Shown: piece after piece, positions 29,824 through 58,535 of the stretch
Numbering within the stretch: position 1 is the first letter of the stretch
Layout of the letters: the number at the start of each line of letters is the position of its first letter
NCBI GenBank assembly: GCA_964618975.1
Contig: CAZUDI010000003.1
Span: forward strand, 61,962-125,961
Direction: 5' to 3'
Origin: an uncultured Bacteriovoracaceae bacterium
Lineage (GTDB): Bacteria > Desulfobacterota > Desulfomonilia > UBA1062
Length of the DNA stretch: 64,000 bases
The notes under the pieces: model-generated
The model's database searches: none
Told to the model about the DNA's origin: nothing
What the model saw: only the letters and a program-made list of their open reading frames with translations
Made by a program: the position numbers and the translations under genes

Positions 29824-29824
29824 A

Positions 29825-32413: not shown

Positions 32414-32422
32414 ATCTTCCTC

Positions 32423-34158: not shown

Positions 34159-34181
34159 GATCCATCCTCCCTCTGTTGCCC

Positions 34182-34919: not shown

Positions 34920-34943
34920 GGTCGATCCTCCTGAGGCCCTCTG

Positions 34944-38607: not shown

Positions 38608-39015
38608 CTAGTCATCGTCGCGGGGCAGTCGCTCCAGCATTCCGGCGAGGATCCCGGAATGCTCGCGGCAGAGCCTCTCTCCGGTCTGCCTGTCTCGAAC
38701 TGACGTGCCGAAGAAGGCGTTGTGGGCCGCTATCACCCCCCTTAAGGCCGCGAGTTCGTCGCGACCGAGTCCCCTGGCCGCGAAATCCATGCGCAGGAGC
38801 GAGGCGAGCACCCGGTCCTCCAGCAAGGGGGGCGTCTCGTCCTGTCCCGTCTCTCCTTGCAGGCCTTCCTGGCAGAGCCGGATGTGCTCCAGATTGCCCC
38901 TGATCTCTTGCGCCAGATCCCGCAGGAAGAGCCTTCGGGTGTGGCACCGCATCAACCACGGGATAAGCAGCACGGCCGCAAGGGTCACTATCAGGGTAAT
39001 GGTGATGTCACTCAT
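38608..39015 (-). CDS. hypothetical single-pass membrane protein
   Basis: Start at MSDITITLIVTLAAVLLIPWLM (ATG 39015), giving a TM helix followed by a soluble domain. No family recognised. Confidence 0.45.
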   Translation of the reverse strand: MSDITITLIVTLAAVLLIPWLMRCHTRRLFLRDLAQEIRGNLEHIRLCQEGLQGETGQDETPPLLEDRVLASLLRMDFAARGLGRDELAALRGVIAAHNAFFGTSVRDRQTGERLCREHSGILAGMLERLPRDDD

Positions 39016-39244
39016 GCCCTCCCCTTTACCAGAGGTGTGGCGCTGGTGACCAGAAAAACCTGCATCCGAAGTGATGCGCCTGAGCGTGGTATGGCTCTGC
39101 CCGGGTCGGCCTTCGGTGCCCCCCGGCAACCGCAGCGACAAATTTTACTGATTCCGCATGCATTCCGGTTAATTATCGCCCTAGGCCCCCCTCGTGTCCA
39201 GACGCCTGAGACCGGGGGCCCCCACCCGGCCCCATCTGCTTGTG

Positions 39245-39273
39245 TTGACTCCCGGGGGGAAATCTTCTATATA
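39245..39273 (+). promoter_or_regulatory. sigma70 promoter TTGACT-N17-TATATA upstream of lysS
   Basis: TTGACT at 39245-39250, 17-nt spacer, TATATA at 39268-39273. Confidence 0.45.
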
Positions 39274-39292
39274 AGCCTTCGATTTTCAAGAA

Positions 39293-40789
39293 ATGAAAGG
39301 GAGTGCCCCGGTGGAGGATGACAACCGTCTGAGAAAACAGCGCATTGATAAATACCAGATGCTCCAGGAGGAGATGGGGGTCGCCCCCTTCCCCAATACC
39401 TTCCGCAAGGACTCGCTGGTCAGGGACTTTATCGACAGTTATGGAGCCAAGGAGGCCACCGAGCTCGAAAGGGTCACCACGGTGCATCACCTTGCCGGTC
39501 GGATCATGGCCATACGCACGTTCGGGAAGGCGGCCTTCATCCATTTTCAGGATACATCGGGCCAACTCCAGGCCTTCTTCGAGAAGGCCACCGTAGGGGA
39601 AGAAGACTATGCGCTCTTCAAGAAGCTCGATGTCGGGGATATCATCGGGCTGTGGGGCAGCCCGATCAAGACGCGCACCGGCGAGCTGAGCGTGTATGTC
39701 CAGGGCTTCTCCCTGCTCACGAAATCCTACCGCCCGCTGCCGGAAAAATGGCACGGGCTCAAGGATATCGAGACCCGCTATCGCCAGCGCTATGTGGACC
39801 TCATCGTGAGCCCCGAGGTCCGGCAGACCTTCCTGATGCGTACCCGCATTATCCAGTTCCTGCGCTCATACATGGATTCCCGCGGCTTCCTCGAGGTGGA
39901 AACCCCCATGATGCACCCGCTGGCCGGAGGTGCCGCGGCCCAGCCTTTCAAGACCCACCACAACGCCCTCGACATGGACCTGTACATGCGCATCGCGCCC
40001 GAACTCTACCTGAAACGGCTCCTGGTCGGCGGATTCGAGCGGGTCTACGAGGTCAACCGCAACTTCCGCAACGAGGGCATCTCCACCAAGCACAACCCGG
40101 AATTCACCATGATGGAATTCTACCAGGCCTATGCGGACTATACCGATCTCATGGATCTCACCGAAGACATGTTCTCGAAACTGGCCTGCGAGATCTGCGG
40201 GGACATGCGGCTGACCTATCAGGGCACGCCCATCGACCTCACCCCGCCCTGGCAGCGCTACACTATGCAGGAGGCCACCGTCACCATCGGCGGGGTCGCC
40301 CCAGAGGTGCTTCGAGACCATGACAGGGCCCGTGCCTACTGCCGGGAACTCGGGCTCGATCTTGCGGGGGACGAACCCCTGGGAGAGATGCAGACGCTCA
40401 TCTTCGAGGCCACCACCGAGGCAAAGCTCACGGGTCCGGCCTTCATCACCGCCTACCCCATCGAGATCTCTCCGCTGTCGCGCCCGAACAATGACGATCC
40501 GGGCGTGGTGGATCGTTTCGAGCTCTTTATCGCCGGACGCGAGTACGCCAATGCCTTCAGCGAGCTGAACGATCCCCTCGACCAGAAAGAGCGCTTTCTC
40601 GAGCAGCTCCGGCACAAGCAGGGACCCGGCGCGATCGACGAGGATTACGTCCGGGCCCTGGAATACGGCATGCCGCCTGCGGCGGGTGAGGGCATCGGCA
40701 TCGACCGGCTCGTGATGCTCATGACCGACAGCCCCTCCATTCGGGACGTTATCCTGTTTCCGTTGTTACGTAAAGGAGATGTGTACTGA
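39293..40789 (+). CDS. lysS: lysine--tRNA ligase (class II)
   Basis: OB-fold anticodon-binding N-terminus; class II motifs 'FRNEGISTKHNPEFTMMEFY' and 'GIGIDRLVMLMTDSPSIRDVILFP'. The start may instead be GTG 39311 (AAGGGAG RBS 8 nt upstream). Confidence 0.95.
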   Translation: MKGSAPVEDDNRLRKQRIDKYQMLQEEMGVAPFPNTFRKDSLVRDFIDSYGAKEATELERVTTVHHLAGRIMAIRTFGKAAFIHFQDTSGQLQAFFEKATVGEEDYALFKKLDVGDIIGLWGSPIKTRTGELSVYVQGFSLLTKSYRPLPEKWHGLKDIETRYRQRYVDLIVSPEVRQTFLMRTRIIQFLRSYMDSRGFLEVETPMMHPLAGGAAAQPFKTHHNALDMDLYMRIAPELYLKRLLVGGFERVYEVNRNFRNEGISTKHNPEFTMMEFYQAYADYTDLMDLTEDMFSKLACEICGDMRLTYQGTPIDLTPPWQRYTMQEATVTIGGVAPEVLRDHDRARAYCRELGLDLAGDEPLGEMQTLIFEATTEAKLTGPAFITAYPIEISPLSRPNNDDPGVVDRFELFIAGREYANAFSELNDPLDQKERFLEQLRHKQGPGAIDEDYVRALEYGMPPAAGEGIGIDRLVMLMTDSPSIRDVILFPLLRKGDVY

Positions 40790-42021
40790 AATTCGAACTG
40801 TTTGTCGCTAAACGTTATCTCCGCGCGAAGAAGGCTCAAGGATTCATCAGCTTCACCTCGGGGCTCTCGGTGTTCGGAATTGCGATCGGTGTCATGGCGC
40901 TGATCGTGGTGCTCTCCGTCATGAACGGCTTCGAGGATGACATCAAGAACAAGATCCTCGGCACCCAGTCGCACCTGATCGTCTCCAGCTACTCGGGGGG
41001 CATCGACGCCCCCGACGCCCTGATGGAGCGCATCACCCGGGACCCTGGGGTACGCGGGGCCACCCCCTTCATCCTCTCCCAGGGGCTGATCACCGCCGCC
41101 GGCGGGATCAGGGGGGCCGTGATCCGGGGCATCGATCCGGTCAGTGCCCCGGAGGTCATCCGTATCCGAGACATCATTACCGCGGGTGACTTCGATTCTC
41201 TGGGGGACACCGGGGTGCTCGTCGGCTCCGAACTGGCCCTGCAGGCGGGCATCCACGTGGGGGATGCCCTCACCCTGGTCTCGCCCGCCGGGACCATCAC
41301 CCCGCTGGGCATGATCCCCCGCTCCAGTGTCTTCGTCGTCCGCGGTCTGTTTTCCACCGGCATGTACGAGTTCGACGCCAATATGGCCTATATCTCACTG
41401 GAGGCCGCCAAAAAGCTCTTCATGCAGGAGCACCCCTCCGGCATCGAGGTCAAGGTGGCCGACATCTACCGCGCCCAGGAAGTGGCCCAGCGGCTGATGC
41501 AGGACCTGGGTCCGGGATACTGGATCAAGACGTGGAAGGATATGAATCGCAGCCTGTTCTCCGCCCTGCGGCTGGAGAAGACGGTCATGTTCATCATCCT
41601 GCTCTTCATCATTCTGGTGGCCGCCTTCAGCATCATCAGTACCCTCATCATGCTCGTGATGGAGAAACGCAAGGACATCGCCATCCTCAAATCCATGGGG
41701 GCCACCACCTCCCAGATCCTGATAATCTTCATGAATCTGGGCATGGTGATCGGAATCTCCGGGACCCTGCTGGGGCTGGGCCTGGGACTGGGGTTGGCCT
41801 ACCATCTCGACCTGGTGGTGGCCGGCGTGGAAGGCATCATCGGCATCGAGGTCATGCCCAAGGACGTCTACTACATCACCGGGCTGCCCACCAAGGTGAA
41901 CCTCCTCCAGGTGGGTCTGATCACCCTGATGGCCCTGCTGCTCTCCTTCCTGGCCACCATTCATCCGGCCCGCCAGGCCGCCCGGCAGGACCCCGTGGAG
42001 GTCATGCGCTATGAAGGCTGA
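40786..42021 (+). CDS. lolC: lipoprotein-releasing system permease LolC/LolE (FtsX-like)
   Basis: 'KFELFVAKRYLRAKKAQGFISFTSGLSVFGIAIGVMALIVVLSVMNGF' is the conserved LolC/E N-terminus. No in-frame ATG or GTG exists between the upstream stop (40771) and this sequence, so a CTG at 40786 (AAGGAGA RBS 6 nt upstream) or another non-canonical start is implied. The start overlaps the lysS stop. Confidence 0.8.
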   Translation: MKFELFVAKRYLRAKKAQGFISFTSGLSVFGIAIGVMALIVVLSVMNGFEDDIKNKILGTQSHLIVSSYSGGIDAPDALMERITRDPGVRGATPFILSQGLITAAGGIRGAVIRGIDPVSAPEVIRIRDIITAGDFDSLGDTGVLVGSELALQAGIHVGDALTLVSPAGTITPLGMIPRSSVFVVRGLFSTGMYEFDANMAYISLEAAKKLFMQEHPSGIEVKVADIYRAQEVAQRLMQDLGPGYWIKTWKDMNRSLFSALRLEKTVMFIILLFIILVAAFSIISTLIMLVMEKRKDIAILKSMGATTSQILIIFMNLGMVIGISGTLLGLGLGLGLAYHLDLVVAGVEGIIGIEVMPKDVYYITGLPTKVNLLQVGLITLMALLLSFLATIHPARQAARQDPVEVMRYEG

Positions 42022-42700
42022 TCCCATCATCAAGGTGAACGGGCTCCATAAATCCTTCCCCCGGGGTCCGGAGGTCATCCATGTCCTCACGGGCGTCGAG
42101 ATGACCATCGGGCGCGGAGAGGGCCTGGCCGTGGTGGGGGCCTCGGGCAGCGGCAAGAGCACCCTGCTCCACCTGCTCGGCGGCCTGGAACACCCGGACA
42201 AGGGCAGCATCCTCTACGGGGAGAGGGAGCTCGCACGCCTCAAGACCGACGAACTGGCCGCCTTCCGCAACCAGACGATCGGTTTCGTGTTCCAGTTCCA
42301 TTTCCTGTTGCCCGAATTCACGGCCTTTGAAAACGTGCTGATGCCGGCGCTCCTGGCATACCCCCGCCCCCGGGATCACGGGGAGCGGGCCGCGGAACTG
42401 CTGCAGATCATGGGCCTGGAGAACCGTAGTCAGCACAAACCCGGGCAGCTCTCCGGGGGGGAACAGCAGCGGGTGGCCCTGGCCCGGGCCCTGATGATGA
42501 ACCCGGCCGTGCTCCTGGCGGACGAACCGACCGGCGACCTGGACCCCGAAACCGGCGAGCGCATGCGCGACCTGCTCATCTCGCTCAAGGAACGCCTGCA
42601 GCTAACCATGGTCATCGCCACCCACAACCTCGGCCTGGCACAGGCCATGGACAGAATCGTCATGCTCAAAGGAGGGCGACTTGAGCCGTACGAAAGGTAG
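42011..42700 (+). CDS. lolD: lipoprotein-releasing system ATP-binding protein LolD
   Basis: Walker A 'GASGSGKST', ABC signature '[15 protein letters not shown]', Walker B '[11 protein letters not shown]'. Its ATG overlaps the lolC stop (ATGA). Confidence 0.9.
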
Positions 42701-45107
42701 CATCGGCGTCCTTTCTCTGATCCTTATCCTCTTCCCGGCAGTGCTCATGGCCCAGAAGGTTGAGCTTTTCACCGATGACCAGGAGATCCTGGACCTGCTC
42801 GCGGATATCTCCTGCATTCAGGTTGCCGAGAAGGGGGGCACCTCCCTGCGTCTCAGTCGGGAGGGCAGCCTCTTTGTCGTTCAGGACACCCTGGGTGTCA
42901 CCTACCGGGCCCCTTCACCGCAGGAGGCGCTCGATGGATACCTCCGGCTCAAGGGCATCTGCCTGATCGAAGAGGTCAAAATAATCGGCACTCAGCGCAT
43001 CTCACCGGAGGCCATCCGCTTCCGGATCAAATCCGCCCGCGGGGATATCCTCCACCGACAGTCCGTCCGCGCCGACATCGAGGAAATCTACGCCATGGGA
43101 TATTTCGAGAGCTGCAACGGCACCTTCGAGGAGGGGGTCCTCACCTTCGAGGTCAAGGAGTACCCGGTCATCGTCTCCATCGAGGCTGAGGGCAACAAGA
43201 AGATCGACGACGACAAGATCCTCGAGTCCATCGGCCTGAAACGCTTCGACATCCTCAATACGCGCCTGCTCAAGACCAGTGTCGACCGCATCCAGGCCCT
43301 GTACCGCGAGAAGGGCTACTACAATGTGGAGGTGGATTCATCCCGAGAGCTCACCGACGGGGGGATCGTGCTCACCTTCGAGATCGATGAGAACAAACGT
43401 CTCTTCGTGAAGAAGGTCCTTTTCGACGGCAACGCGCACGTCCCGGACAAGAAGCTCCGCAAGGTCATGGAGACCAAGAACCGCTGGTGGCTCGGTCTCT
43501 TCTCGCATCCGGGTTCCTACATGGACGAGACCCTGGATACGGACCTCCTGCGCATCGAACAGTACTATGGCGACCAGGGATATATCGAGGCCCGGGTGGG
43601 TCGACCCCAAGTGGAGGTCGGAGAGAAGGGAATTTTCATTACCATCCCCGTCGAGGAGGGCCCCCTGTTCCACATCGGGGCGCTCGAGGTTACCGGGGAC
43701 CTCATCCGCCCCCGGGAAGAGCTCATCGAGGCCCTGGATCTGAAAAGCGGGGATGTCATGAGCAAAAGCAGGATCCACCTGGGGATCGAGCACCTGCGGG
43801 ACATCTATATGGACGAGGGCTATGCCTTTGTCCAGATCCAGACACAGAGCAAGGTCGAGGGCACCACGGTGGCGCTGACCTTCGACATCCGCAAGATGAA
43901 TCCCGTGCACATCGGAGAGATCACGATCCAGGGCAACACCAAGACGCGCGACAAGGTCATCCGGCGCGAATTGCAGCTGGAAGAAAGCGACCTCTTCTCA
44001 TCAAGCGCGCTCAAACGCAGCAACGACCGTCTGAACCGCCTCGGCTACTTCTCCTCGGTAGAGATCGAGCCCACTCCCGGCCCGGACGACACCATGTCCC
44101 TGCGGGTCAAAACCGAAGAGACCACCACTGGCGCTTTCTCCTTCGGCCTGGCCTACTCGAGCGAGGACAAGGTCACCGGCACCCTGGAGCTCAGCGAAAA
44201 CAACCTCAAGGGGCTGGGGCTCAAAACCAAGCTGGCAATGGAGTATGGACAGGAAAAAAAGAAGTACACCCTGGACATCGAGGAGCCCTGGCTCATGGAT
44301 TACCCCGTCTCCCTGGGATGCCGTCTCTACAGCCAGGAGAAGGAGGAGCTCTACTACACCAAGGAATCCCGGGGCGGCAATATCCGCCTGAGCTATCCCC
44401 TCTTCGAGGAGGTACGCCACTTCATCGCCTATACCTATGAGGAGGTTACCGGGCTGAGCGATATTGACCCCACCTACCGCTACCTGCTGACGGCAGACGA
44501 TATCGACGGCTATCTCACCTCCAGTGTCACCAACACCCTCTACCGCGATACGACCAACGATTTCTACCGCCCCACACGCGGTTCGGACCTCTCCTTCTCC
44601 CTGCAGTACGCCGGGCTGGGCGGCGACTACCACTTTACGCGCACCTCTCTCAAGGCAGCGCAATTCTTCCCGATCTACAAGGACAAAGTGGCCTTGATGT
44701 TGAAACTCAGATGGGGTACCATTAACGGGTCCAAGGGTGATGATGTGCCCATAGACGAAAAGTATACCCTGGGCGGAATGAATACCATCCGGGGTTTCAG
44801 ATACGGCGAGATCGGGCCTCAGGACGTTTATGGCAATGTCATCGGGGGGGACAGGATGTTCATTTTCAATACCGAGGTCACCTTCCCCATCGGCGGTGTG
44901 CCCGGTCTCTCGGGGCTGGTCTTCTACGATGCCGGCAATGCCTACAACAAACGCATCGACCTCGGGAACATCAAGCAGGCTTACGGCGGCGGCTTCCGCT
45001 GGGTGACACCCATGGGACCTCTGCGGCTGGAATACGGCAAGGTTATCTCTCCAGAGTCCGGAGAATCCAACGGACGCTGGGATTTCACCATTGGAACATT
45101 TTTCTAA
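42681..45107 (+). CDS. bamA: outer membrane protein assembly factor BamA
   Basis: 808 aa. TTG start after AAAGGAGGG; signal peptide, POTRA repeats, and a C-terminal beta-barrel ending '...WDFTIGTFF' (terminal aromatic). Confidence 0.9.
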
Positions 45108-45133
45108 GGAAATCATAGAACGGAGGAACATGT

Positions 45134-45676
45134 ATGAAAAAAACGGTGTCGGTGCTCACCACCCTGAGCATGCTGCTGATCCTGATCCCTTGCGCCTATG
45201 CCGCGGAGTACAAAATCGCGGTGGTGGACAAACAGAAACTCCTGCTGGAAAGCCAGGCCGGCAAGGATGCCCTAGCAGAGCTGGAACAGGTACAGAAGGA
45301 GAAGGAGGCGGAAATCAACCAGAAGCGCGAGGCCATCCGCAAGCTCGAAGAGGAGATCTCGATCAAGGGACTCACCATGAGCGATGCCGCCAAGGAGGAG
45401 CTCGAGCTGCGCCATCAGCAGATGACGCGCGAGATGAACCGCTTCTTCCAGGACGCCCAGGAGGACTGGAAGCGCAGCCAGATCACGCTGCTCAAGCCCA
45501 TCAGTGACGCCCTGGACGAACTAATAACCAACTACGGCCAGGAACACGGACTGGACCTCATCATCGACAGACGCACCCCGGGCGTGCTCTTTTCCGCCGA
45601 CGGGATCGACATCACCCCGGGCATCCTGGCCCTCTACGACAAGCTCTACCAGGAGAAGAAGGCCAAGAAAGAGTAG
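45134..45676 (+). CDS. skp: periplasmic chaperone Skp (OmpH)
   Basis: Signal peptide followed by 'KIAVVDKQKLLLESQAGKDALAELEQVQKEKEAEIN', the OmpH coiled-coil tentacle sequence. Immediately downstream of bamA. Confidence 0.85.
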   Translation: MKKTVSVLTTLSMLLILIPCAYAAEYKIAVVDKQKLLLESQAGKDALAELEQVQKEKEAEINQKREAIRKLEEEISIKGLTMSDAAKEELELRHQQMTREMNRFFQDAQEDWKRSQITLLKPISDALDELITNYGQEHGLDLIIDRRTPGVLFSADGIDITPGILALYDKLYQEKKAKKE

Positions 45677-45679
45677 CCC

Positions 45680-46690
45680 ATGCGTTTGAGCGAGCTGGCA
45701 TATTCCGTCGCGGGCCGCCTGCGGGGCGAGGATCGCGAGATCACCGGGGCCTCGACCCTCGAGGAGGCCCAGAGGGGTGACATCACCTTCCTGGCCAATC
45801 CGCGCTACAAGGCCCAGGCCCTCAAGACCTCCGCCGGGGCGATCCTCGTGTCCGAGGAGCTTGACAGCCCCATATCCCAGGTCATCGTGGGCAACCCCTA
45901 TCTGGCCTTTGCCGAGGTCCTCGACCGGCTCTACCCCCCCCGGGAACACCCTGCCGGGATCGCGAAGGAGGCCTGCGTGGCGCCGAGCGCCCGCGTGGAC
46001 AGGGGTGCCAGCATCGGTGCGCACGTCTTCATCGGTGCAGACGCCCACATCGGGGAAGACTGCATCATCTATCCGGGATGTTTTATCGGTGACGGGGTGC
46101 GCATCGGGAAGGAGTGTGTGCTGTACCCCCAGGTGGTGGTGTATGACGGCTGTCTGATCGGGAGCTCCTGCATCATCCATGCCGGCAGCGTCATCGGCTC
46201 GGACGGGTTCGGTTTCACCTGGGACGGCCAGCGTCACCGCAAGATCCGCCAGAAGGGCATCGTGGTCCTCGGCGACGGGGTCGAGATCGGCAGCAACTGT
46301 ACCATCGACCGCGCCGCACTCACGCGCACAATCGTGGGCACGGACGTCAAGACCGACAACCTCGTGCACATCGGCCACAACGTCGTGGTGGGGGATCACA
46401 CCCTCATCGTGGCGCAGAGCGGAATCGCCGGCAGCGCCCGCATCGGCAACCACGTCACCCTGGCTGGACAGTGCGGGGTCATCGGACACATCACTATCGG
46501 GGATTACTGCGTGGCCGCCTCGCGCGCGGGCATCACCGCGGATCTCAAACCCGGCAGCATCGTCTCCGGTTATCCGGCAATCGACCACAAGCAGTGGCTG
46601 CGGGTGCAGAAGGTGTACAAGGAGCTCCCCGAGCTCCTCCGACGCGTGCGCGAGTTGGAAAGGAGACTGGATGTCCACGGTGACGATTGA
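45680..46690 (+). CDS. lpxD: UDP-3-O-acylglucosamine N-acyltransferase
   Basis: LpxD N-terminal domain ('ITGASTLEEAQRGDITFLANPRYK') followed by left-handed beta-helix hexapeptide repeats. Conserved position after skp. Confidence 0.9.
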   Translation: MRLSELAYSVAGRLRGEDREITGASTLEEAQRGDITFLANPRYKAQALKTSAGAILVSEELDSPISQVIVGNPYLAFAEVLDRLYPPREHPAGIAKEACVAPSARVDRGASIGAHVFIGADAHIGEDCIIYPGCFIGDGVRIGKECVLYPQVVVYDGCLIGSSCIIHAGSVIGSDGFGFTWDGQRHRKIRQKGIVVLGDGVEIGSNCTIDRAALTRTIVGTDVKTDNLVHIGHNVVVGDHTLIVAQSGIAGSARIGNHVTLAGQCGVIGHITIGDYCVAASRAGITADLKPGSIVSGYPAIDHKQWLRVQKVYKELPELLRRVRELERRLDVHGDD

Positions 46691-47453
46691 TCCCACGGCC
46701 TGTGTCTCACCCCGGGCCGAGCTGGAAACGGGCGTGCGCGTGGGGCCCTACAGCGTCATCGAGGACGAGGTCCACATCGGTGCCGGCACCTTTATCGGCC
46801 CCCACTGCCTGATCCAGGGTCCCTCCCGCATCGGAGCCCAGTGCACCTTCACGGGCTACGCCAGCATCGGCACCCCCCCTCAGGACCACAGCTACCGGGG
46901 GGAGAAGACCTCCCTGGTCATGGGCGACCACAACACCGTGCGCGAGTTCGCGACCATCAACCGCGGGACCCTCAAGGACAAGGGGATCACCCGCGTGGGC
47001 AGCGGCAACCTCATCATGGCCTATGCGCACGTGGCCCACGACTGCATCGTGGAGGACCACATCGTGATGGGCAACCTCGCCACCCTGGCGGGGCACGCCC
47101 AGGTGGGCCACCACGCCATCATCGGGGGGCTCTCCGCCGTGCACCAGTTCACCCGGATAGGCGCCTATGCCATCCTCGGCGGCGGTTCCATGGTGAGCCT
47201 CGACATCGTCCCCTTTGCCAAGGCCTCGGGCAATCGCGCGCGGCTCTTCGGGCTCAACTCCATCGGCCTCAAACGCAACGGCTTTACCCCCGAAGCGGTC
47301 CGCGACCTGCGGCAGGCCTTCCGCCTGCTCTTCCAGAAGGGCCTGCTGCTCGCCGAGGCCCTGTCCCTCCTTAGCAGCACCTTTCCCGACTCCGAACACA
47401 TCGCCCATCTGATCGACTTTATCGAGTGCTCAAAGCGGGGGATCGCCCGATGA
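46671..47453 (+). CDS. lpxA: acyl-ACP--UDP-N-acetylglucosamine O-acyltransferase
   Basis: Start at MSTVTIDPTA (ATG 46671) after GGAAAGGAG. 'IDPTACVSPRAELETGVRVGPYSVIEDEVHIGAGTFIGPH' is the canonical LpxA LbH N-terminus. Overlaps the lpxD 3' end by 20 nt. Confidence 0.9.
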   Translation: MSTVTIDPTACVSPRAELETGVRVGPYSVIEDEVHIGAGTFIGPHCLIQGPSRIGAQCTFTGYASIGTPPQDHSYRGEKTSLVMGDHNTVREFATINRGTLKDKGITRVGSGNLIMAYAHVAHDCIVEDHIVMGNLATLAGHAQVGHHAIIGGLSAVHQFTRIGAYAILGGGSMVSLDIVPFAKASGNRARLFGLNSIGLKRNGFTPEAVRDLRQAFRLLFQKGLLLAEALSLLSSTFPDSEHIAHLIDFIECSKRGIAR

Positions 47454-48376
47454 AGCGCATCCGTGTCGCCGTGATCGGCGTGGGCTATCTCGGCCGCTTC
47501 CATGCCCAGAAATACGCTGGTCTTGAGACCGTCGACCTCGTAGGCGTGGTCGACATCGACGCCCGGCGCGCCCAGGCCGTCGCCTATGAGGTGGGTTGCC
47601 CAGCCTTCAGCCGGATCGAGGAAATCAGAGAAGGCCTCGATGCGGTGAGCGTGGCGGTGCCCACCTCGGTGCACGCCGAGGTGGCCATCCCCCTGCTCGA
47701 GCAGGGTATCGCGGTGCTACTGGAAAAGCCCATGTCGGCCAGCATTGAAGAGGGCCGCCGCATCATCGCCGCCGCCAGGAGCGGCGGCGCCGTGCTCCAG
47801 GTGGGGCATCTCGAACGTTTCAATCCGGCGCTGCTGAGTCTCAAGGACCGCATCGATCGTCCCATGTTCATCGAGGCGCACCGTATCAGCCCCTTCCGCG
47901 AACGCGGCATCGACGTGGACGTGCTCTTGGACCTCATGATCCACGACATCGACATCATCCTCTCGCTCGTCAACTCTCCCATCACCTCGGTGGAGGCCGT
48001 GGGTGTCCCGGTGCTCACCCAGGAGGTGGACATTGCCAATGCCAGGCTGCGCTTCGAGAGCGGCTGTATCGCCAATGTGACGGCCAGCCGGGTCAGCGCC
48101 GATACCATGCGCAAGATCCGCATCTTCCAGCCGGACGCCTACATCTCCATCGACTATGCCAAACGCGCGGTGGATGTCTACACCCTGGGGGAGGGTCGGG
48201 AGATCCTGCACGATCACTTGAGCATCTCGGAGGCCGACGCCCTGCAGGCGGAGGTGCACGCCTTTGTCGAGGCCCTCCGAGGCAAGCTGTCCGTGGTGGT
48301 GGACGGCGAGGCCGGTCTTCGTGCCCTCGAGGTCGCCTACCGGATCAAGGACGCCATGATCATACCCGAACGATGA
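47450..48376 (+). CDS. Gfo/Idh/MocA-family NAD(P)-dependent oxidoreductase inserted between lpxA and lpxB (candidate UDP-GlcNAc 3-dehydrogenase, GnnA-like)
   Basis: 'IRVAVIGVGYLGRFHAQ' (Rossmann GxGxxG) and 'EKPMSASIEE' (the EKP motif of Gfo/Idh/MocA). ATGA overlap with the lpxA stop; runs to the lpxB start. Confidence 0.6.
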   Translation: MKRIRVAVIGVGYLGRFHAQKYAGLETVDLVGVVDIDARRAQAVAYEVGCPAFSRIEEIREGLDAVSVAVPTSVHAEVAIPLLEQGIAVLLEKPMSASIEEGRRIIAAARSGGAVLQVGHLERFNPALLSLKDRIDRPMFIEAHRISPFRERGIDVDVLLDLMIHDIDIILSLVNSPITSVEAVGVPVLTQEVDIANARLRFESGCIANVTASRVSADTMRKIRIFQPDAYISIDYAKRAVDVYTLGEGREILHDHLSISEADALQAEVHAFVEALRGKLSVVVDGEAGLRALEVAYRIKDAMIIPER

Positions 48377-49449
48377 AGAGCATCCTCATGACAGCCGGCG
48401 AGGCGAGTGCTGATCGGCACGCCGCGTGTGTAATCCGACAACTGAAAGCCACGCTTCCCGAGGTGGAGGTCTTCGGTATGGGCGGACCCGCGATGGTCCA
48501 GGCGGGCCTTAAGTGCCGCTACGGCATGGAGCACCTCAGTGTCATGGGCTTCTCGGATGTCCTTCCCCGCCTTAGCGACATCCTCGGCGTCTGGCGGGGC
48601 CTGCGCCGGATCATCCGCGAGGAGCGTCCGGACGTGTTCATCCCGGTGGACCTGCCGGATTTCAACATGCCCTTGGCCCGCTATGCCCGGCGCTACGGGG
48701 TGAAGGTGCTCTACTATATCGCGCCCCAGGCCTGGGCCTGGAGGAGGTACCGGGCGCGCACCCTGGCGCGCATCACCGACGGACTGGCGGTGATCTTTCC
48801 CTTCGAGGAGCCCTTCTTCGCCTCTTACGGGGTGAAGGCCCGCTACGTGGGGCACCCCATGCTCGAGGACGATCCCGACCCGTGGGAGGTCGCCTGGCCG
48901 CCAAGGCGCATCACCCTGCTGCCCGGCAGCCGGGCCCATGAGATCGAACGCATGCTGCCCGTGATGCTCACGGCCAAGCGCATTGTTCAGCGCCGCAGGC
49001 CAGGGCTGGCGTGGACGCTGCCCGTGGCCCCCGGCCTCGACGGGAGCTGGCTTGCAGGCCTGCTCGACGACGACGTCACACTGAGTGCCGCCATGGTCCC
49101 GGCGGATCTGGCCCTGGTCACCTCCGGTACCGCCACCCTGGAGATGGCCGTTCGCGGTGTCCCGCAGGTGATCTGCTACCGCACGTCACAGGCGAACTAC
49201 CGTCTGGCACGGGCCTTCGTACGGTTGGAGCATATCGGCATGCCCAATGTGATCCTGGGCCGGGAGGCCGTGCCCGAACTCATCCAGGAGCGGTGTACGG
49301 GAGAGGGTCTGGCCGGCGCCATGCTGCGCCTGCTGGAGGAGCGCGAGGAAGCTGAGCGCCAGTTTGCGGCCTATGCGCAGTTACGTAAGAATCTCGGAAA
49401 CAGGAAGGCCGCCCAAGGAGTCGCCACATGGATACGACAGATGCTCTAG
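48373..49449 (+). CDS. lpxB: lipid-A-disaccharide synthase
   Basis: 'ILMTAGEASADRHAA...VFGMGGPAM' N-terminus and a GT-B fold (glycosyltransferase family 19). Confidence 0.85.
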   Translation: MKSILMTAGEASADRHAACVIRQLKATLPEVEVFGMGGPAMVQAGLKCRYGMEHLSVMGFSDVLPRLSDILGVWRGLRRIIREERPDVFIPVDLPDFNMPLARYARRYGVKVLYYIAPQAWAWRRYRARTLARITDGLAVIFPFEEPFFASYGVKARYVGHPMLEDDPDPWEVAWPPRRITLLPGSRAHEIERMLPVMLTAKRIVQRRRPGLAWTLPVAPGLDGSWLAGLLDDDVTLSAAMVPADLALVTSGTATLEMAVRGVPQVICYRTSQANYRLARAFVRLEHIGMPNVILGREAVPELIQERCTGEGLAGAMLRLLEEREEAERQFAAYAQLRKNLGNRKAAQGVATWIRQML

Positions 49450-51188
49450 CGCACAGAAGCGATCTCCAGGTCTACAAACGTCTGATCGGCTACCTCGGGG
49501 ACTACTGGCCCAAACTCGCCGTGGCGGCGGTGCTCATGATCATTCTCTCGGCCACTCAGGGGATGCTGGCCTTCCTGGTCAAACCCGCCATGGACGATAT
49601 CTTCATCGCCAAGGACGTCTCCAAGCTGCACCTCATCCCCTTAGGTATCGTGGGCATCTTCCTCCTGCGGGGGGTATGCGATTACGGGCGGTATTACCTC
49701 ATGGCCGAGGTGGGACAGCGCATCATCATGGATATCCGCGACCAGCTCTATGCCCACATCCAGCGCCTCTCGATGCCCTTTTTCATCCGCACCCCCACCG
49801 GCATCATCATCTCGCGTATCACCAACGACGTGAACCTCGTCCAGGCCTCGGTGACCAATGCGATCACCGGGCTGATCCGTGAGGCCTTCACCCTGGTGGG
49901 GCTCGTCTTCGTGGTCTTCTACCGCGACTGGCAGCTGGCGCTGATCGCCATGCTCGTCTTCCCGGTAGTGGCCGTCCCCATCAACCGCTTCGGTAAGCGC
50001 CTCAAACACTACTCCACCAAGGGTATGAAGGTCATGGGCGACGTCATGACCATCCTGGACGAGGGCATCTCGGGCATCCGCATCGTGAAGGCCTACAATA
50101 TGGAGGACTACGAGCAGCGCCGTTTCAATATCGAAAACCGGCGCTATTTCCGCAACTGGATGCGCCGTCTCTCCATCCGGGCGGTCTCCACCCCGCTCAT
50201 GGAGCTCATCGGCGGTCTGGCCATCGCTTTCATCCTCTGGTACGGGGGCATGAAGGTCATCGATGGAACCTCCACCCCGGGCAACTTCTTCTCCTTCATG
50301 GCCGCGCTCTTCATGCTCTACGCCCCCATCCGCAAGCTCAACGAGCTCAACATCGTGGTGCAGGAGGGTATCGCCGCTGCCCGCCGGGTATTCTCCCTGC
50401 TCGATACCGAGCCCGAGATCGCCGAGAGCATCGATGCGCTGACCCTCGCGAACGCCCGCGGGCATGTGGTCTACGAGGACGTGTGGTTCAGCTATACCGG
50501 TGAGATCGATGCCCTCCAGGGGATCTCCTTCGAAATCAAGCCCGGTGAGCACGTGGCGCTCGTAGGCGAGAGCGGGTCCGGCAAGACCACCATCGCCAAT
50601 CTGCTGCCGCGCTTCTTCGACGTCACCAAAGGCCGCATACGCGTCGACGGGTGCGACATACGGGAGCTCACCCTGTGCTCCCTGCGGGAAAACATCGCCG
50701 TGGTCACGCAGGACATGGTGCTCTTCAACGACACCATCCACGCCAACATCGCCTATGGCTCGCAGTCCGCCTCTGAGGAGGATATTCAGGCCGCGGCCAG
50801 AGCCGCCCACGCCCACGATTTCATCATGCAGCTGCCCGAGGGCTACGAGACCAAGGTGGGCGAAGGCGGCAGCCGCCTCTCGGGCGGCCAGAAACAGCGC
50901 CTCTGTATCGCGAGGGCCGTCCTGAAGAAGGCGCCCATCCTGATCCTGGACGAGGCCACCTCGTCTCTCGATACCGAGTCGGAAAAGGAGGTGCAGGCGG
51001 CCATGGACTCCCTCATGTCCGGACGCACCACGCTCTCCATTGCCCACCGCCTCTCCACCATCGTCGGCGCCGACCGCATCATCGTGCTCAACCAGGGGCG
51101 GATCGTGGAGACGGGAACCCATACACAGCTGCTCGCCAGGGACGGCTACTACACGCGACTCTACTCCCTCCAGTTCAGCAATGACTAG
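49428..51188 (+). CDS. msbA: lipid A export ABC transporter (permease/ATPase fusion) MsbA
   Basis: Six-TM domain plus an ABC ATPase: 'GESGSGKTT', 'LSGGQKQRLCIARAV', 'ILILDEATSSLD'. Confidence 0.85.
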   Translation: MDTTDALAHRSDLQVYKRLIGYLGDYWPKLAVAAVLMIILSATQGMLAFLVKPAMDDIFIAKDVSKLHLIPLGIVGIFLLRGVCDYGRYYLMAEVGQRIIMDIRDQLYAHIQRLSMPFFIRTPTGIIISRITNDVNLVQASVTNAITGLIREAFTLVGLVFVVFYRDWQLALIAMLVFPVVAVPINRFGKRLKHYSTKGMKVMGDVMTILDEGISGIRIVKAYNMEDYEQRRFNIENRRYFRNWMRRLSIRAVSTPLMELIGGLAIAFILWYGGMKVIDGTSTPGNFFSFMAALFMLYAPIRKLNELNIVVQEGIAAARRVFSLLDTEPEIAESIDALTLANARGHVVYEDVWFSYTGEIDALQGISFEIKPGEHVALVGESGSGKTTIANLLPRFFDVTKGRIRVDGCDIRELTLCSLRENIAVVTQDMVLFNDTIHANIAYGSQSASEEDIQAAARAAHAHDFIMQLPEGYETKVGEGGSRLSGGQKQRLCIARAVLKKAPILILDEATSSLDTESEKEVQAAMDSLMSGRTTLSIAHRLSTIVGADRIIVLNQGRIVETGTHTQLLARDGYYTRLYSLQFSND

Positions 51189-52134
51189 AGCGAGCGTATC
51201 CTTGACCCTCCCCTACGGCGCCCTCATCCGGGTGCGCAACCACCTCTATGACCGGGGCCTCCTGCCCAGCTACCTCACCCCGCCGCTGGTCATCAGTGTC
51301 GGCAATCTCGAGACCGGCGGCACGGGCAAGACCCCCACGACCATCGCCCTGGCAAAAACCCTCACCAACCGCGGACACCGCGTGGCCATCGTGACTCGGG
51401 GCTATCGGGGCCGGCTGCCCGGGGTCGTTGAGGTCACGGCCACGCATACGGCGCGCGAGGTGGGGGACGAGGCCCTCCTCATGCAGCGCACGAGCGGGGT
51501 GCCGGTCATCAAGGCCCCCGACCGGGTGGCCGGGGCCCTGTATGCCTCCCGCCTCGGATGCACCATCGTAGTGCTCGACGACGGCTTTCAGCACCGCCGG
51601 ATCCGGCGCGACCTCGACATCGTGCTCGTCTCGCGCGACCTGACTCGCGCCCGTCTGCTGCCCACCGGGGTGCTGCGCGAACCGGTGGACTCGCTTGCAC
51701 GCGCGCACCTGGTCATCGCCACCAAGGGGGCGCCCCCGGGAGGGCTGAGCGCTCACCTCGCCCCGGAATGTCTGGTGGACATCCACGCCCACACGACACC
51801 GCTCGAGGCGCTTAAGGACAGACGGGTGCTGGCCTTCTGCGGCCTGGCCCGCCCGCAGGGCTTCTATGACAGCTTGAGCGCCTTGGGTGCCCGTGTGGAA
51901 GCCTTGAGCTTCAGGGACCATCACCGCTACACGCAGCGGGATCTCCGACGCATCCAGCGTCACGCCCAATCCAGCGAGCTGGTCGTGACCACGGAAAAGG
52001 ACCTGGTCAAGCTCAGGCCGGAATGGACCGAGAAAAACTGGTACGCGCTGCGGGTGGGTATGCAGTTCAGCGATCCGGGCAGGATCATCCAGGAGATTGA
52101 GGACCGTGTATCCAACAGGCGTCTTTCTCGATAG
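51181..52134 (+). CDS. lpxK: tetraacyldisaccharide 4'-kinase
   Basis: Start at MTRASVSL (ATG 51181), overlapping the msbA stop. P-loop 'VISVGNLETGGTGKTP' is the LpxK signature. Confidence 0.85.
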   Translation: MTRASVSLTLPYGALIRVRNHLYDRGLLPSYLTPPLVISVGNLETGGTGKTPTTIALAKTLTNRGHRVAIVTRGYRGRLPGVVEVTATHTAREVGDEALLMQRTSGVPVIKAPDRVAGALYASRLGCTIVVLDDGFQHRRIRRDLDIVLVSRDLTRARLLPTGVLREPVDSLARAHLVIATKGAPPGGLSAHLAPECLVDIHAHTTPLEALKDRRVLAFCGLARPQGFYDSLSALGARVEALSFRDHHRYTQRDLRRIQRHAQSSELVVTTEKDLVKLRPEWTEKNWYALRVGMQFSDPGRIIQEIEDRVSNRRLSR

Positions 52135-52663
52135 GGACGACACCCTCATCCGTGATCGGGTCTATCTCAGCGACCCCGAGGGGATCGAGATCCTTCCCGG
52201 GGTGCCGCAAGCCATCGCCCAGCTCAACGCCCATGGCATACCCGCCATCATCGTCACGAACCAGTCCGGTATCGCCCGGGGGCTCTTCGACGAAAAACGC
52301 CTGGCCGAGATCCACGCCCGGCTTACGACACTGCTGGCCGCCCGTGGTGCCCGCATCGATGCCATCTACTACTGCCCGCACCATCCCGAAGGGATCGTAG
52401 CTCAGTACCGCCTGGAGTGCCCCTGCCGCAAGCCCGAACCCGGCATGCTCATCCAGGCCGCGCGCGACTTCGCGCTCGACCTTACACGCTGTTATCTGAT
52501 CGGCGACCAGTCCATCGACATCGCCACGATCAAACGCGTAGGCGGCACCGGCATCCAGCTCGTCCCGCCCGGGACGGCGCCCCCCTGCGGGGCCGACCAT
52601 ACCGCCCCGGACCTTGAGCAGGCCGTAGAGTGGATCCTGAGGAAGGAAAACCTCTCATGCTGA
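52097..52663 (+). CDS. gmhB: D-glycero-D-manno-heptose 1,7-bisphosphate phosphatase (HAD-IIIA)
   Basis: 'VFLDRDDTLI' (the DxDxT motif), 'IIVTNQSGIARG', and 'CYLIGDQSIDIA' with a CxHxxxxC..C zinc motif ('YCPHHPEG...CPCRKPEPGM'). Confidence 0.75.
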   Translation: MRTVYPTGVFLDRDDTLIRDRVYLSDPEGIEILPGVPQAIAQLNAHGIPAIIVTNQSGIARGLFDEKRLAEIHARLTTLLAARGARIDAIYYCPHHPEGIVAQYRLECPCRKPEPGMLIQAARDFALDLTRCYLIGDQSIDIATIKRVGGTGIQLVPPGTAPPCGADHTAPDLEQAVEWILRKENLSC

Positions 52664-53622
52664 GCGCCAAAGAGCTGGTCTCACACCTGCTCCCCCTCAT
52701 CCGCGGGCTGATCACCCTCATCCGCTTCACCCCCTATCCGCTGGCCATCCTCGGCGGCCGGACCCTGGGGCTCCTCGGCTGGGCCCTGGATCCCTTCCAC
52801 CGCCGGTCAGCCGACACCCAGATGCATGCGGCCCTCGGGACGGCCTGGCACCCCCTGATGAGCCTCAAGGTCTTCATGAACCAGGGGGACATCCTCGTCG
52901 ACACGATCAAGTATGCCTATATGGACACACAGGAGCTCAGACGCCGCGTGCGCATCGAGGGCCGGGAGCACCTCGAGCAAGCCCTGGCCAGCGGGCGGGG
53001 CATCATGCTCGTGACCGGGCACATCGGCAACTGGGAGATCCTCGCCAACCTCGCGCGCCTGATCGACATCGAATTCTGTGTTATGGCCGATCAACGCGAC
53101 GACCCCGGGCTGGAGAGCATCATCGACGGCCTGCGCGAACGCACCGGGGCCACCATCCTGCCGCCCAAGGGCAAGGCCCTCATGCTTGTGCGCGAGCTGC
53201 GGCGAGGCCGAACCATCGGCATGGTCGTGGACCAGCGCGGCCGCAGGGGCGAACGCCTGCTGTGTGACGTCTTCGGCCTGCCCGCCCCCACCAACCCCGC
53301 CCCGGCCGTCATCGCGCTGAAGGGCCGGGCCCTGATCGTGCCGGTGACGGCCGTCCGGGAGCACCATGGCTACCGCATCCGCATCGAGGAGCCCCTGGAT
53401 GCGACCAGCTTCGGGTCCAGCGCTCAGGCCATCCAGGAAGCCAGCGACTTCATGCAGTCCTGGGTAAGCCGCGAGGTGGAGCGACACCCGGATCAGTGGT
53501 TCTGGCTGCACTGCCGCTGGACCAGACGCTCCGAAATGCGCCGCCTGCTGCGGGAGGGCATCGATTTCCGTGATTATATCCTGAAGCAGGCCGAGGCGGT
53601 CAGGCAGGGTCGCTATTTATGA
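52658..53622 (+). CDS. lpxL: lipid A biosynthesis late (lauroyl/myristoyl-type) acyltransferase, LpxL/LpxM family
   Basis: N-terminal TM helix, the 'LVTGHIGNWE' HX4D-like acyltransferase motif, and 'DQRGRRGE'. Has a C-terminal tail 'RWTRRSEMRRLLREGIDFRDYI' past the usual LpxL end. Confidence 0.75.
53514..53557 (+). repeat. 44-nt segment nearly identical (2 mismatches) to 54609-54652, within the lpxL paralogue tails
   Basis: cgctggaccagacgctccgaaatgcgccgcctgctgcgggaggg against cgctggaccaggcgctccgagatgcgccgcctgctgcgggaggg. Confidence 0.8.
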
Positions 53623-53720
53623 ACATCCACCATTCCGCCAGGCCACAGGCACGAGCCGTTGCGATCAGCGGTGATGCCGGTCCATCTATGGCGCCCCCCC
53701 TTAAAAGGAGAAACATACGC

Positions 53721-54755
53721 ATGCAGATACCATCACGAATCCTCTATCACTCGGCTAAGGCCGGCATCTTTCTCATTGGCGCCATGCCCGCTGTCATGGC
53801 GCAGTTCCTGGGCCAGCTGCTCGGGATCCTCGGCTTTATCCTGGCGCCGCAGCACCGCAAAACCGCCGAACTCCAGATGCGCCAGGCCCTGGGTGACGAC
53901 TACAACAGGAGCCTGCCGCTCAAGGTCTTCATGCATCACGGTCGCGTCCTGGTCGATGCCATCCGTTATGCCGGCATGGATACGGATAGCGTGCATCAAA
54001 GTTTCGAGATCGAGGGCCGTGAGTACCTCGATGCGGCCCTGGCTTCTCCGCGCGGCGTCATGCTGATCGAGGGACATCTCGGCAACTGGGAGATGACACC
54101 CCACCTGCCACGCGTCCTGGGTTTCGCTTGCGATATCATCATGAACGAGCGCAAGAACCCCGGTATCGAGGCCCTCATCCAGGAACTGCGCGACCAGCCC
54201 GGGGTTACCAAGCTGCCCCCCAAGGGGGGGGTGATGAAGGCCATGATCGCCACCCTCAGGGCCGGCCATACGGTCTTCATGGCCGCCGATCAGCGCGGCC
54301 CGCGAGGCAATACGCTGGTCTGCAACTTCTTCGACCTGCCCGCCCTCACCAGCCCGGTCCCGGCCTACATCGCCATCAAGGGTGACGCCCTGATCGTGCC
54401 GGTGTCCATCATTTACATGGCCGACCGCTACCGCGTCCGCTTCGAGGCCGCCATCGATCCGCGCGACATCTGCCCGAACGCCGACGCCCTCACCGGTCTG
54501 CGCCAGGGCATGCAGACCGAGCCCGTGGAGAGACTCAGTACAATCATCCAGGACTGGCTGGTCGCGATGATCCGGCAATATCCCACCCAGTGGATCTGGC
54601 TCTACAGCCGCTGGACCAGGCGCTCCGAGATGCGCCGCCTGCTGCGGGAGGGGGGAGATTTCAGGGCCTATATCCGCTCTCAGGCCGAGCGCATCAACCA
54701 GAGGCCGGGGACGCATCCTGAAGTGGGCAGTCAAACCGGAGCGTTCCTGCCATAA
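53721..54755 (+). CDS. second LpxL/LpxM-family late acyltransferase (paralogue)
   Basis: Start at MQIPSRILYHS (ATG 53721; AAGGAGA RBS). 'LIEGHLGNWE' and 'DQRGPRGN' motifs, and the same C-terminal tail 'RWTRRSEMRRLLREGGDFRAYI'. Confidence 0.75.
   Translation: MQIPSRILYHSAKAGIFLIGAMPAVMAQFLGQLLGILGFILAPQHRKTAELQMRQALGDDYNRSLPLKVFMHHGRVLVDAIRYAGMDTDSVHQSFEIEGREYLDAALASPRGVMLIEGHLGNWEMTPHLPRVLGFACDIIMNERKNPGIEALIQELRDQPGVTKLPPKGGVMKAMIATLRAGHTVFMAADQRGPRGNTLVCNFFDLPALTSPVPAYIAIKGDALIVPVSIIYMADRYRVRFEAAIDPRDICPNADALTGLRQGMQTEPVERLSTIIQDWLVAMIRQYPTQWIWLYSRWTRRSEMRRLLREGGDFRAYIRSQAERINQRPGTHPEVGSQTGAFLP
54609..54652 (+). repeat. second copy of the 44-nt near-identical segment (see 53514-53557)
   Basis: See paired feature. 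Confidence 0.8.
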
Positions 54756-54889
54756 GACCTTTGCCAACGCGGCCAGGGGTAGTCGGCCCCGGGGGCCGCG
54801 CCCCGTTCGTACCGGTATATTTACACGATTACCTCATACTGGGGCTTGATTTTCAGACCCTTTATCGGTATACGGAAGGTGCACTCTGG

Positions 54890-54964
54890 GGCGGCATAGC
54901 CAAGTGGTAAGGCGACGGTCTGCAAAACCGTTATTCACCGGTTCAAATCCGGTTGCCGCCTCCA
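54890..54964 (+). tRNA. tRNA-Cys (anticodon GCA)
   Basis: GGCGGCAtaGCCAAGTGGTAAGGCGACGGTCTGCAAAACCGttattcaCCGGTTCAAATCCGGTTGCCGCCtCCA shows a 7-bp acceptor stem, anticodon loop CT-GCA-AA, T-loop GGTTCAAATCC and an encoded CCA. Confidence 0.85.
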
Positions 54965-54988
54965 TTTTATTATCCAGTCCGGGGTTTT

Positions 54989-55915
54989 ATGAAGAAGGCT
55001 TCCCACATAACGCACATCATACCCCTGCTGCTGTTGCTCTTTTCCACGCCTCTGCTGGCCGACGGCGGGGGGCGCATCGAATGCATGGGTCTGCGAATAT
55101 CCGGGGAAACCCGCTATGAGCTCACCATCCCCGCCGGCCAGAGTGCCCTCGAATGGCCCCTGGAGCACTATCTCGTCGGACTCAACGCCACAGTCGATAT
55201 GGACGATCACCTGGAGGCCGAGCTCACCTGCCTGATTTCCCCCTGGCAGATCTCGGAGTCGCCCCTGAAGGATTCCGACTGGCTTGTCGATACGCATCCG
55301 CGCCTGCGCTACTATTCGGAGACCGACCTGGACACCAGGGGGCTGCTCCTGTGGGCCCAGGTGCGTTTCTATCCCATCGCGCACGAAAGCCTCTCCCTCG
55401 GAATCACCGGCGGATACCGCTTCCAGGAATTCAGCTTCATGGGCTATGATGCCCTCCAGGCCGAATACACCTCGGGGGACTGGAGCGGGTATGTGGTCGG
55501 GGGGGAGGTGATCACCTACCGCGTCCTGTACGACCTGGTTCAGGCGGGTCTGAGCCTGCGCCTTAGACAGGGCGACGCCTTCCACCTCACGCTCGACACC
55601 AGCTTCATTCCCCTGGCGCGTGTCCGCGACGCCGACAACCATCTGCGGCGCTATAAAAAACTGCAAGGTTCCTGCATAGGCGACGGGATTGCGGTGGATC
55701 TCGCCGTACGATACCGCGTGTATGCCCGCTGGCACCTGCTTCTTACAGGCGGTCTGACCCGTGTGAGTACCAGCGGTCATCAGGACCAGATCTGGTATGG
55801 CGACGATCCCATAACCCCCGGTACCGACGACACCGGCCAGGCCTCCCTGCATCTCCCCCTAAAGGTGGAGTTGAACGCCGTGCACCTCGGGTGCGGCCTC
55901 GGCCTGCAGTTCTAA
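54989..55915 (+). CDS. outer-membrane beta-barrel protein of unknown function
   Basis: Start at MKKASHITHIIPLLLLLFSTPLLA (signal peptide). Alternating amphipathic beta-strands, ending '...GLGLQF' (C-terminal Phe). Family not determined. Confidence 0.55.
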   Translation: MKKASHITHIIPLLLLLFSTPLLADGGGRIECMGLRISGETRYELTIPAGQSALEWPLEHYLVGLNATVDMDDHLEAELTCLISPWQISESPLKDSDWLVDTHPRLRYYSETDLDTRGLLLWAQVRFYPIAHESLSLGITGGYRFQEFSFMGYDALQAEYTSGDWSGYVVGGEVITYRVLYDLVQAGLSLRLRQGDAFHLTLDTSFIPLARVRDADNHLRRYKKLQGSCIGDGIAVDLAVRYRVYARWHLLLTGGLTRVSTSGHQDQIWYGDDPITPGTDDTGQASLHLPLKVELNAVHLGCGLGLQF

Positions 55916-55967
55916 GAAATCACCCCGGGGGGTAATGCCCGTTTGAGAGCCTGTCGATAGGGTACCT

Positions 55968-58339: not shown

Positions 58340-58535
58340 GAGCCTGTCACCGAGATTACCGCTTCCTCCGGCTTCCCTTTAATCGCTAGAGGTCGACATC
58401 CCGGAGGCTCGCGGCGTCAGGGCGGGTCCCGGGCTTGCCCCGGGGTTCCTACCCATGACCTGCAGATCAAAACCGGGAAAACGCAGGGGGAAATATCTGT
58501 TTGATGAGCTCTGGTTTTGTGCTACAAACACCGCT

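Follow-up and report, generated by a model that had tools for sequence, protein, structure and literature searches.

The stretch of DNA analysed here (the window, 64,000 nucleotides of contig CAZUDI010000003.1 from an uncultured bacterium of a Desulfobacterota lineage) carries an envelope operon in which an oxidoreductase of the Gfo/Idh/MocA family, a candidate UDP-N-acetylglucosamine (UDP-GlcNAc) 3-dehydrogenase of the GnnA type, is inserted between the lipid A genes lpxA and lpxB. Based on Pfam and NCBIfam assignments, the operon forms a same-strand run of about 13 kb with the order bamA-skp-lpxD-lpxA-oxidoreductase-lpxB-msbA-lpxK-gmhB-like-lpxL-lpxL' (Table 1), and all of its core lipid A enzymes score above the curated NCBIfam cut-offs. 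This order from skp onwards, together with the tight overlaps between the genes, had already been proposed in a first-pass annotation of the window and is borne out by the domain assignments, by direct reading of the junctions and by independent gene calls, as an identical protein of 308 amino acids is encoded on three independent metagenome contigs, on which the gene calls agree in genes and starts. At the sequence level, the ATG of lpxA at 46671 lies within the end of lpxD, resulting in an overlap of 20 nucleotides, while the lpxA stop codon and the start codon of the oxidoreductase (47450) overlap as ATGA, and so do the oxidoreductase stop codon and the start codon of lpxB (48373). Further downstream, lpxB and msbA overlap by 22 nucleotides and msbA and lpxK by 8 nucleotides. 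For lpxA, the match to the family model begins at residue 166 of a long open reading frame (ORF), and the gene call gives the shorter protein listed in Table 1. A scan of positions 39000-58500 for promoters and terminators returned counts close to those expected from shuffled sequence and only weak hairpins on the plus strand, the first of which after the end of an operon gene is located at 54832, just past lpxL'.

Table 1. Genes of the envelope operon and of a second group of lipopolysaccharide (LPS) core genes in the window, with positions, strand and the supporting matches.
Feature	Position	Strand	Supporting matches and remarks
bamA, first gene of the operon	42681-45107	+	TIGR03303 627 bits (cut-off 297); five POTRA domains and Omp85
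skp (OmpH-family periplasmic chaperone)	45134-45676	+	PF03938 99 bits
lpxD (UDP-3-O-acylglucosamine N-acyltransferase)	45680-46690	+	NF002060 395 bits (cut-off 207); TIGR01853 359 bits, also above cut-off
lpxA (UDP-GlcNAc acyltransferase, 260 amino acids)	46671-47453	+	NF003657 341 bits (cut-off 226)
gnnA orthologue, predicted UDP-GlcNAc 3-dehydrogenase, 308 amino acids	47450-48376	+	PF01408, PF22725, PF02894
lpxB (lipid A disaccharide synthase)	48373-49449	+	TIGR00215 269 bits (cut-off 190)
msbA (lipid A flippase)	49428-51188	+	TIGR02203 664 bits (cut-off 602)
lpxK (tetraacyldisaccharide 4'-kinase)	51181-52134	+	TIGR00682 207 bits (cut-off 92); start per gene call in L001
GmhB-like HAD-IIIA phosphatase	52106-52663	+	NF006506 152 bits (below cut-off 178); TIGR01662 111 bits (above cut-off 45)
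lpxL-type late acyltransferase 1 (Lip_A_acyltrans)	52657-53622	+	PF03279 136 bits
lpxL-type late acyltransferase 2 (lpxL')	53721-54755	+	PF03279 118 bits; start per gene call
GT9 heptosyltransferase	1318-2295		
Kdo/WaaP-family kinase	2414-4141	-	
Fusion of GT2 glycosyltransferase and Kdo/WaaP-type kinase domain	3972-5759		

According to its Pfam domains, the 308-residue protein has the two-domain Gfo/Idh/MocA fold, in which the N-terminal part is an NAD-binding Rossmann domain with the GxGxxG motif. In a search of all solved structures, its best relative is GnnA from Acidithiobacillus ferrooxidans (7bvj_A; 218 bits, E 1.4e-63, full length), to which it is about 40% identical (118 of 298 columns). 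In contrast, the next-best solved structure, an inositol dehydrogenase, reaches 66 bits, and no structure other than GnnA exceeds this value. We also generated an AlphaFold model of the protein with 24 homologues as input (mean predicted local distance difference test 91.7). In a Foldseek comparison with the PDB, the modelled fold appears closest to the GnnA chains 7bvj/7bvk, which make up the five best matches (template-modelling score, TM, 0.90-0.94, root-mean-square deviation 1.7-2.3 Å, 38-39% identity, E of about 1e-32), and scyllo- and myo-inositol dehydrogenases follow with E values of about 1e-24, i.e. eight orders of magnitude behind GnnA. Moreover, when 81 family members are aligned, 68 columns show at least 95% conservation, and 67 of them are retained in the window protein, including the residues G10-x-G12-x-x-G15, D35, E92-K93-P94 and D161-x-x-x-H165. 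In Gfo/Idh/MocA enzymes, the GxGxxG motif, the lysine of EKP and the Asp-x-x-x-His motif serve in dinucleotide binding and catalysis. In comparison to A. ferrooxidans GnnA, the window protein shares the fold, these motifs and a similar size (the 7bvj chain has 321 residues), but it differs in its limited identity, its origin from an uncultured Desulfobacterota-type genome, the lack of a nearby gnnB and in having an activity that is predicted. The entries 7bvj/7bvk are titled 'UDP-N-acetylglucosamine 3-dehydrogenase GnnA' from A. ferrooxidans and are referred to as such also in 10.1101/2024.11.05.622173. The activity itself is attributed to this GnnA by Sweet et al. 2004 and Manissorn et al. 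2020, as cited in PMC5644692 and PMC9636410. By way of comparison, a protein of Granulibacter bethesdensis with 44% identity is regarded in the literature as its putative GnnA, and this organism was shown to have 2,3-diamino-2,3-dideoxyglucose (GlcN3N) in its lipid A (PMC8036547).

A profile built from 27 family members with an adjacent gnnB and A. ferrooxidans GnnA assigns 406 bits to the window protein versus 100 bits to an inositol dehydrogenase. In a neighbour-joining tree, calculated without support values, the window protein and its five closest relatives (L004-L008) form a clade that is nested in a single family with A. ferrooxidans GnnA, and a long branch leads to the inositol dehydrogenase outgroup, so that a clustering with unrelated Gfo/Idh/MocA subfamilies is not seen. 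The suggestion made in the first-pass annotation that the inserted enzyme is GnnA-like is thus supported by the comparisons with characterised GnnA in sequence, structure and profile, all of which are in favour of it, as well as by the DegT aminotransferase genes that lie immediately downstream of many homologues. This also has consequences for annotation: homologues from Desulfomonilia, 'Deltaproteobacteria' and Thermodesulfobacteriota metagenome-assembled genomes, on which the taxonomic placement of the lineage is based, are named only 'Gfo/Idh/MocA family oxidoreductase' in the databases, and such proteins can be identified as GnnA with good confidence. The gain is an incremental one and the mechanism is not new; the GnnA family is known, and the window protein is an ordinary further member.

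For the genomic context of the family, we scanned species-representative genomes and collected 80 loci encoding relatives with 44-70% identity to the window protein. ORFs at these loci were taken by a simple longest-ORF heuristic and assigned to families by BLAST with the window proteins and with FabZ, GnnB and LpxI candidates from the loci, the latter being confirmed by Pfam (FabA-like, DegT_DnrJ_EryC1 and LpxI). Directly downstream of the gnnA homologue lies a DegT aminotransferase (gnnB, e.g. L010:10973-12067, L009:2205-3296 and L074:10961-12055) at 27 of the 80 loci, 15 of which run straight into lpxB, and lpxB itself at 30/80. Another gene follows at 17 of the loci, the contig ends at five, and at one the gnnA homologue is fused to LpxB in a single ORF. 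At least one lpx gene is present at 57/80 loci, and a pattern of this kind is what would be expected for gnnA and gnnB. Loci with an adjacent gnnB belong to Geobacter-type Desulfuromonadales and to Gammaproteobacteria. The gnnA-lpxB state without gnnB is shared by the clade of the window, Desulfobulbia- and Desulfobacteria-type loci and Legionellaceae. The cultured Desulfogranum japonicum DSM 18378 (L018) also carries the lpxA-gnnA-lpxB arrangement. The five species-level genomes closest to the window (L004-L008, 64-70% identity; among them JAKQBR01, L005, JALNWY01, L006, and DAOPXM01, L008) have the same lpxD-lpxA-oxidoreductase-lpxB order without gnnB and without fabZ.

Compared with the gnnA-gnnB-lpxB clusters of Geobacterales/Desulfuromonadales and Gammaproteobacteria (e.g. 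L010, L023, L074, L081), the window gene belongs to the same family (47-53% identity) and has the same orientation upstream of lpxB, and in the Geobacter-type loci gnnA also follows directly after lpxA. However, in these clusters gnnA is separated from lpxB by a DegT aminotransferase gene and lpxD from lpxA by fabZ, both of which are missing in the window and its clade. With the canonical Escherichia coli-type lpxD-fabZ-lpxA-lpxB cluster and the lpxA-lpxI-lpxB variant, the window shares the skp-lpxD...lpxA...lpxB backbone downstream of bamA, but its slot between lpxA and lpxB is occupied by gnnA, instead of being empty or filled by lpxI, and fabZ is absent. The gene order of the window therefore differs from both the E. 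coli paradigm and the gnnA-gnnB-lpxB clusters, yet it is common to many genomes. As a separate observation, an lpxA paralogue is located directly upstream of gnnA-gnnB in some Methylococcales- and Ectothiorhodospiraceae-type genomes (L038:9195-9962, L058:9231-10004, L063:9205-9981), with another lpxA of L058 in a separate cluster with fabZ, and two tandem lpxA copies adjoin fabZ-lpxD in L074 (16282-17833). These paralogues recall the lpxA/lpxA' pair of Capnocytophaga canimorsus, which has been reported for a hybrid GlcN3N-GlcN backbone (PMC3342949).

The fused ORF deserves separate mention. It is located at L054:3585-5651 (bacterium UBP18 UBA7526, DLMW01000053.1) and encodes 688 amino acids, of which the N-terminal half is GnnA-like and shares 50% identity with the window protein, while LpxB forms the C-terminal part. 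Such fusions recur: in a search with this protein, about 43 of 120 clusters among the matches listed carry both PF01408 and PF02684 in 668-750 amino acids, down to 34% identity, and by name they originate from Omnitrophota, Verrucomicrobiae and unclassified bacteria (P0121-P0165, P0174). They are annotated only as 'lipid-A-disaccharide synthase', and we know of no earlier description of a GnnA-LpxB fusion. The fusions have the same gnnA-then-lpxB order as the window, where two coupled genes take the place of the one polypeptide. The recurrent fusions tie the GnnA family independently to lipid A assembly.

Besides the insertion of the oxidoreductase, the operon is characterised by what it lacks. 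That the cluster is devoid of fabZ, as stated in the first-pass annotation, holds by three lines of evidence: since lpxD and lpxA overlap, a fabZ between them is impossible; neither a FabA/FabZ nor a DegT domain was found by Pfam in the larger ORFs of the window (about 50/63 candidates); and tblastn searches of the window with FabZ and GnnB from the syntenic loci gave E = 0.09 at best. In addition, fabZ was not found within 10 kb beyond either end of the window, and it is absent from the clusters of the five closest relatives as well. In most of the more distant loci it sits between lpxD and lpxA, and in L037 (60% identity) it is found upstream of lpxA. Likewise, the window encodes neither LpxI nor LpxH nor any further UDP-2,3-diacylglucosamine hydrolase, and the 308-residue protein has no LpxI_N or LpxI_C domain by Pfam, while genuine LpxI of related loci matches PF17930 and PF06230. 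Other Desulfobacterota have such an LpxI between lpxA and gnnA (L031:8843-9667, L044:8014-8823, L045:2290-3102, L046:9046-9864), and their gene order is lpxD-fabZ-lpxA-lpxI-gnnA-lpxB. Two proteins of the window were considered as substitutes and ruled out. The class-III aminotransferase at 16729-18168 on the minus strand, a possible stand-in for GnnB, is the glutamate-1-semialdehyde 2,1-aminomutase HemL (TIGR00713, 614 bits, above cut-off), and the DUF4442/YiiD-type hot-dog protein at 7467-7910, a possible FabZ substitute, has no FabA/FabZ domain, in line with the negative tblastn search for FabZ. The cluster of the window clade is in this respect stripped-down, and fabZ, the UDP-2,3-diacylglucosamine hydrolase gene and gnnB would thus be encoded elsewhere in the genome. 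The lack of fabZ and of lpxI is a clade-specific rearrangement and no functional novelty.

Taken together, we consider it likely that 47450-48376 encodes a GnnA orthologue, i.e. an NAD+-dependent UDP-GlcNAc 3-dehydrogenase, which feeds the assembly of GlcN3N lipid A. In the proposed pathway, GnnA would oxidize the 3-OH of UDP-GlcNAc to a 3-keto sugar with NAD+, a step that orthology strongly suggests, and a pyridoxal phosphate-dependent DegT-type transaminase GnnB, whose gene was not located and which would be encoded elsewhere in the genome, would convert this intermediate to the 3-amino sugar UDP-GlcNAc3N. LpxA, the product of the gene immediately upstream, would then N-acylate the 3-amine in place of O-acylating a 3-OH. 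LpxC, LpxD, the hydrolase, LpxB, LpxK, the LpxL-type enzymes and MsbA would complete and export the molecule, and five of these later activities are encoded in the operon itself (LpxD, LpxB, LpxK, LpxL-type with two genes, MsbA). The predicted product is a lipid A backbone with one or two GlcN3N units and amide-linked primary acyl chains. The 4-nucleotide ATGA overlaps may couple the translation of gnnA to that of lpxA and lpxB, so that production of the modified precursor would keep pace with lipid A assembly. On this basis, the lipid A of this uncultured sulfate-reducer-like Desulfobacterota bacterium probably contains amide-linked fatty acids.

Several points weigh against this assignment. 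No DegT-type aminotransferase is encoded in the 64-kb window or within 10 kb past either end (about 84 kb), and the five closest relatives likewise have no gnnB at a distance of up to 10 kb from gnnA; for the window, its absence had been noted in the first-pass annotation and stands after the Pfam and tblastn searches, with HemL as the sole aminotransferase and no sugar aminotransferase. The best NCBIfam model for the oxidoreductase, the archaeal UDP-GlcNAc 3-dehydrogenase equivalog NF040723, aligns over the full length with 217 bits, which is below its cut-off of 450, and it is the only NCBIfam model for this activity. Furthermore, acceptance of UDP-GlcNAc3N by the LpxA of the window is not readable from its sequence, and a full GlcN3N backbone cannot be predicted over a hybrid one. 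Searching the literature for GlcN3N in Desulfobacterota or Geobacter returned nothing relevant, and for this lineage GnnA activity and GlcN3N lipid A are predictions.

The absence of gnnB could mean that the clade of the window and many Desulfobacterota with gnnA-lpxB truly have no orthologous GnnB, in which case the 3-keto-UDP-GlcNAc would be aminated by an unrelated, non-DegT aminotransferase or would have another fate, e.g. in an undescribed modification of the lipid A backbone. This would be consistent with the finding that gnnB is missing within 10 kb at all 30 loci with a direct gnnA-lpxB order, as it is in the 84 kb around the window gene. However, the Legionellaceae loci L048 and L076 show the same gnnA-lpxB arrangement without gnnB within 10 kb, and the lipid A of Legionella nevertheless has a GlcN3N disaccharide backbone (PMC7956469, PMC7867332), so that the lack of a nearby gnnB is weak evidence against the pathway. 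As Mesorhizobium loti likewise keeps gnnA and gnnB apart (PMC5644692) and the catalytic and family-conserved residues of the window protein are intact, we regard a truly GnnB-less system as quite unlikely. Another explanation keeps the chemistry, a 3-oxidation of UDP-GlcNAc or of UDP-N-acetylglucosaminuronic acid, and changes the product, which might be a 2,3-diacetamido sugar that ends up in O-antigen, capsule or a surface glycan, comparable to the archaeal and WbpB/WlbA pathways, with the position in the lipid A operon being incidental. The match to NF040723 fits this idea, since the archaeal enzyme has the same predicted reaction in the context of diacetamido sugars and not of lipid A, and so do the 17 of 80 loci without adjacent lpx genes, e.g. 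the Bacteroidota/Chlorobi-type L040 and L071. Given its score, the window protein is best described as a homologue with the same predicted chemistry outside that archaeal equivalog. It is difficult to reconcile an incidental position with the ATGA coupling to both lpxA and lpxB, with lpx genes at 57 of the 80 loci and with the recurrent GnnA-LpxB fusions. Besides, the solved oxidoreductases 3q2k and 3q2i, which we take to be WlbA, score only 37-42 bits with the window protein versus 218 bits for the lipid A enzyme GnnA, which altogether makes a product outside lipid A unlikely.

A further alternative is an unrelated Gfo/Idh/MocA sugar dehydrogenase, e.g. of the inositol or glucose type, which acts on another lipid A or core precursor; a different sugar dehydrogenase had also been kept as an alternative in the first-pass annotation. 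The Pfam domains of the protein are indeed generic for Gfo/Idh/MocA proteins, and there is a weak match to the inositol 2-dehydrogenase IolG (TIGR04380, 110 bits). This score lies far below the cut-off of 355, so that the protein is not assigned to IolG, and the solved structures other than GnnA remain at or below 66 bits compared with 218 for GnnA. Together with its position nested inside the GnnA family, a long branch away from inositol dehydrogenase, this alternative is not supported, and we consider it very improbable.

If the assignment as a GnnA orthologue is correct, the lipid A of an uncultured Desulfobacterota lineage would have GlcN3N as its backbone and carry its primary acyl chains in amide linkage, and the same prediction can be made for many relatives that share the gnnA-lpxB arrangement. 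For Legionella, it has been suggested that GlcN3N lipid A offers protection from breakdown by amidases and esterases (PMC7867332). In Campylobacter jejuni, inactivation of gnnA and gnnB led to higher TLR4 activation and higher sensitivity to antimicrobial peptides (PMC8036547).

Some further features of the window are related to the cell envelope. Directly after the second lpxL-type gene and on the same strand as the operon, the region 54989-57317 encodes a protein of 308 amino acids with a weak match to the Omptin family, a possible outer-membrane beta-barrel, followed by a protein of 449 amino acids that has no match in Pfam or NCBIfam. A role of these two proteins in the modification of lipid A or of the outer membrane is possible. 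A second group of LPS core genes is located at 1318-5759 (Table 1). The ORF at 13164-14228 on the plus strand is GlmU-like, but matches only positions 1-320 of GlmU models with about 455 residues and stays below all cut-offs. It ends 82 nucleotides before lon (14310-16739), with most of the C-terminal acetyltransferase part missing, and represents either a GlmU that acts only as a uridylyltransferase or a gene that has been truncated. Finally, a flagellar basal-body and hook-associated block on the minus strand lies upstream of the envelope operon (28063-35066) and comprises flgF/G-like rod proteins, flgA, flgH, flgI, a rod-binding protein, flgN and flgK.

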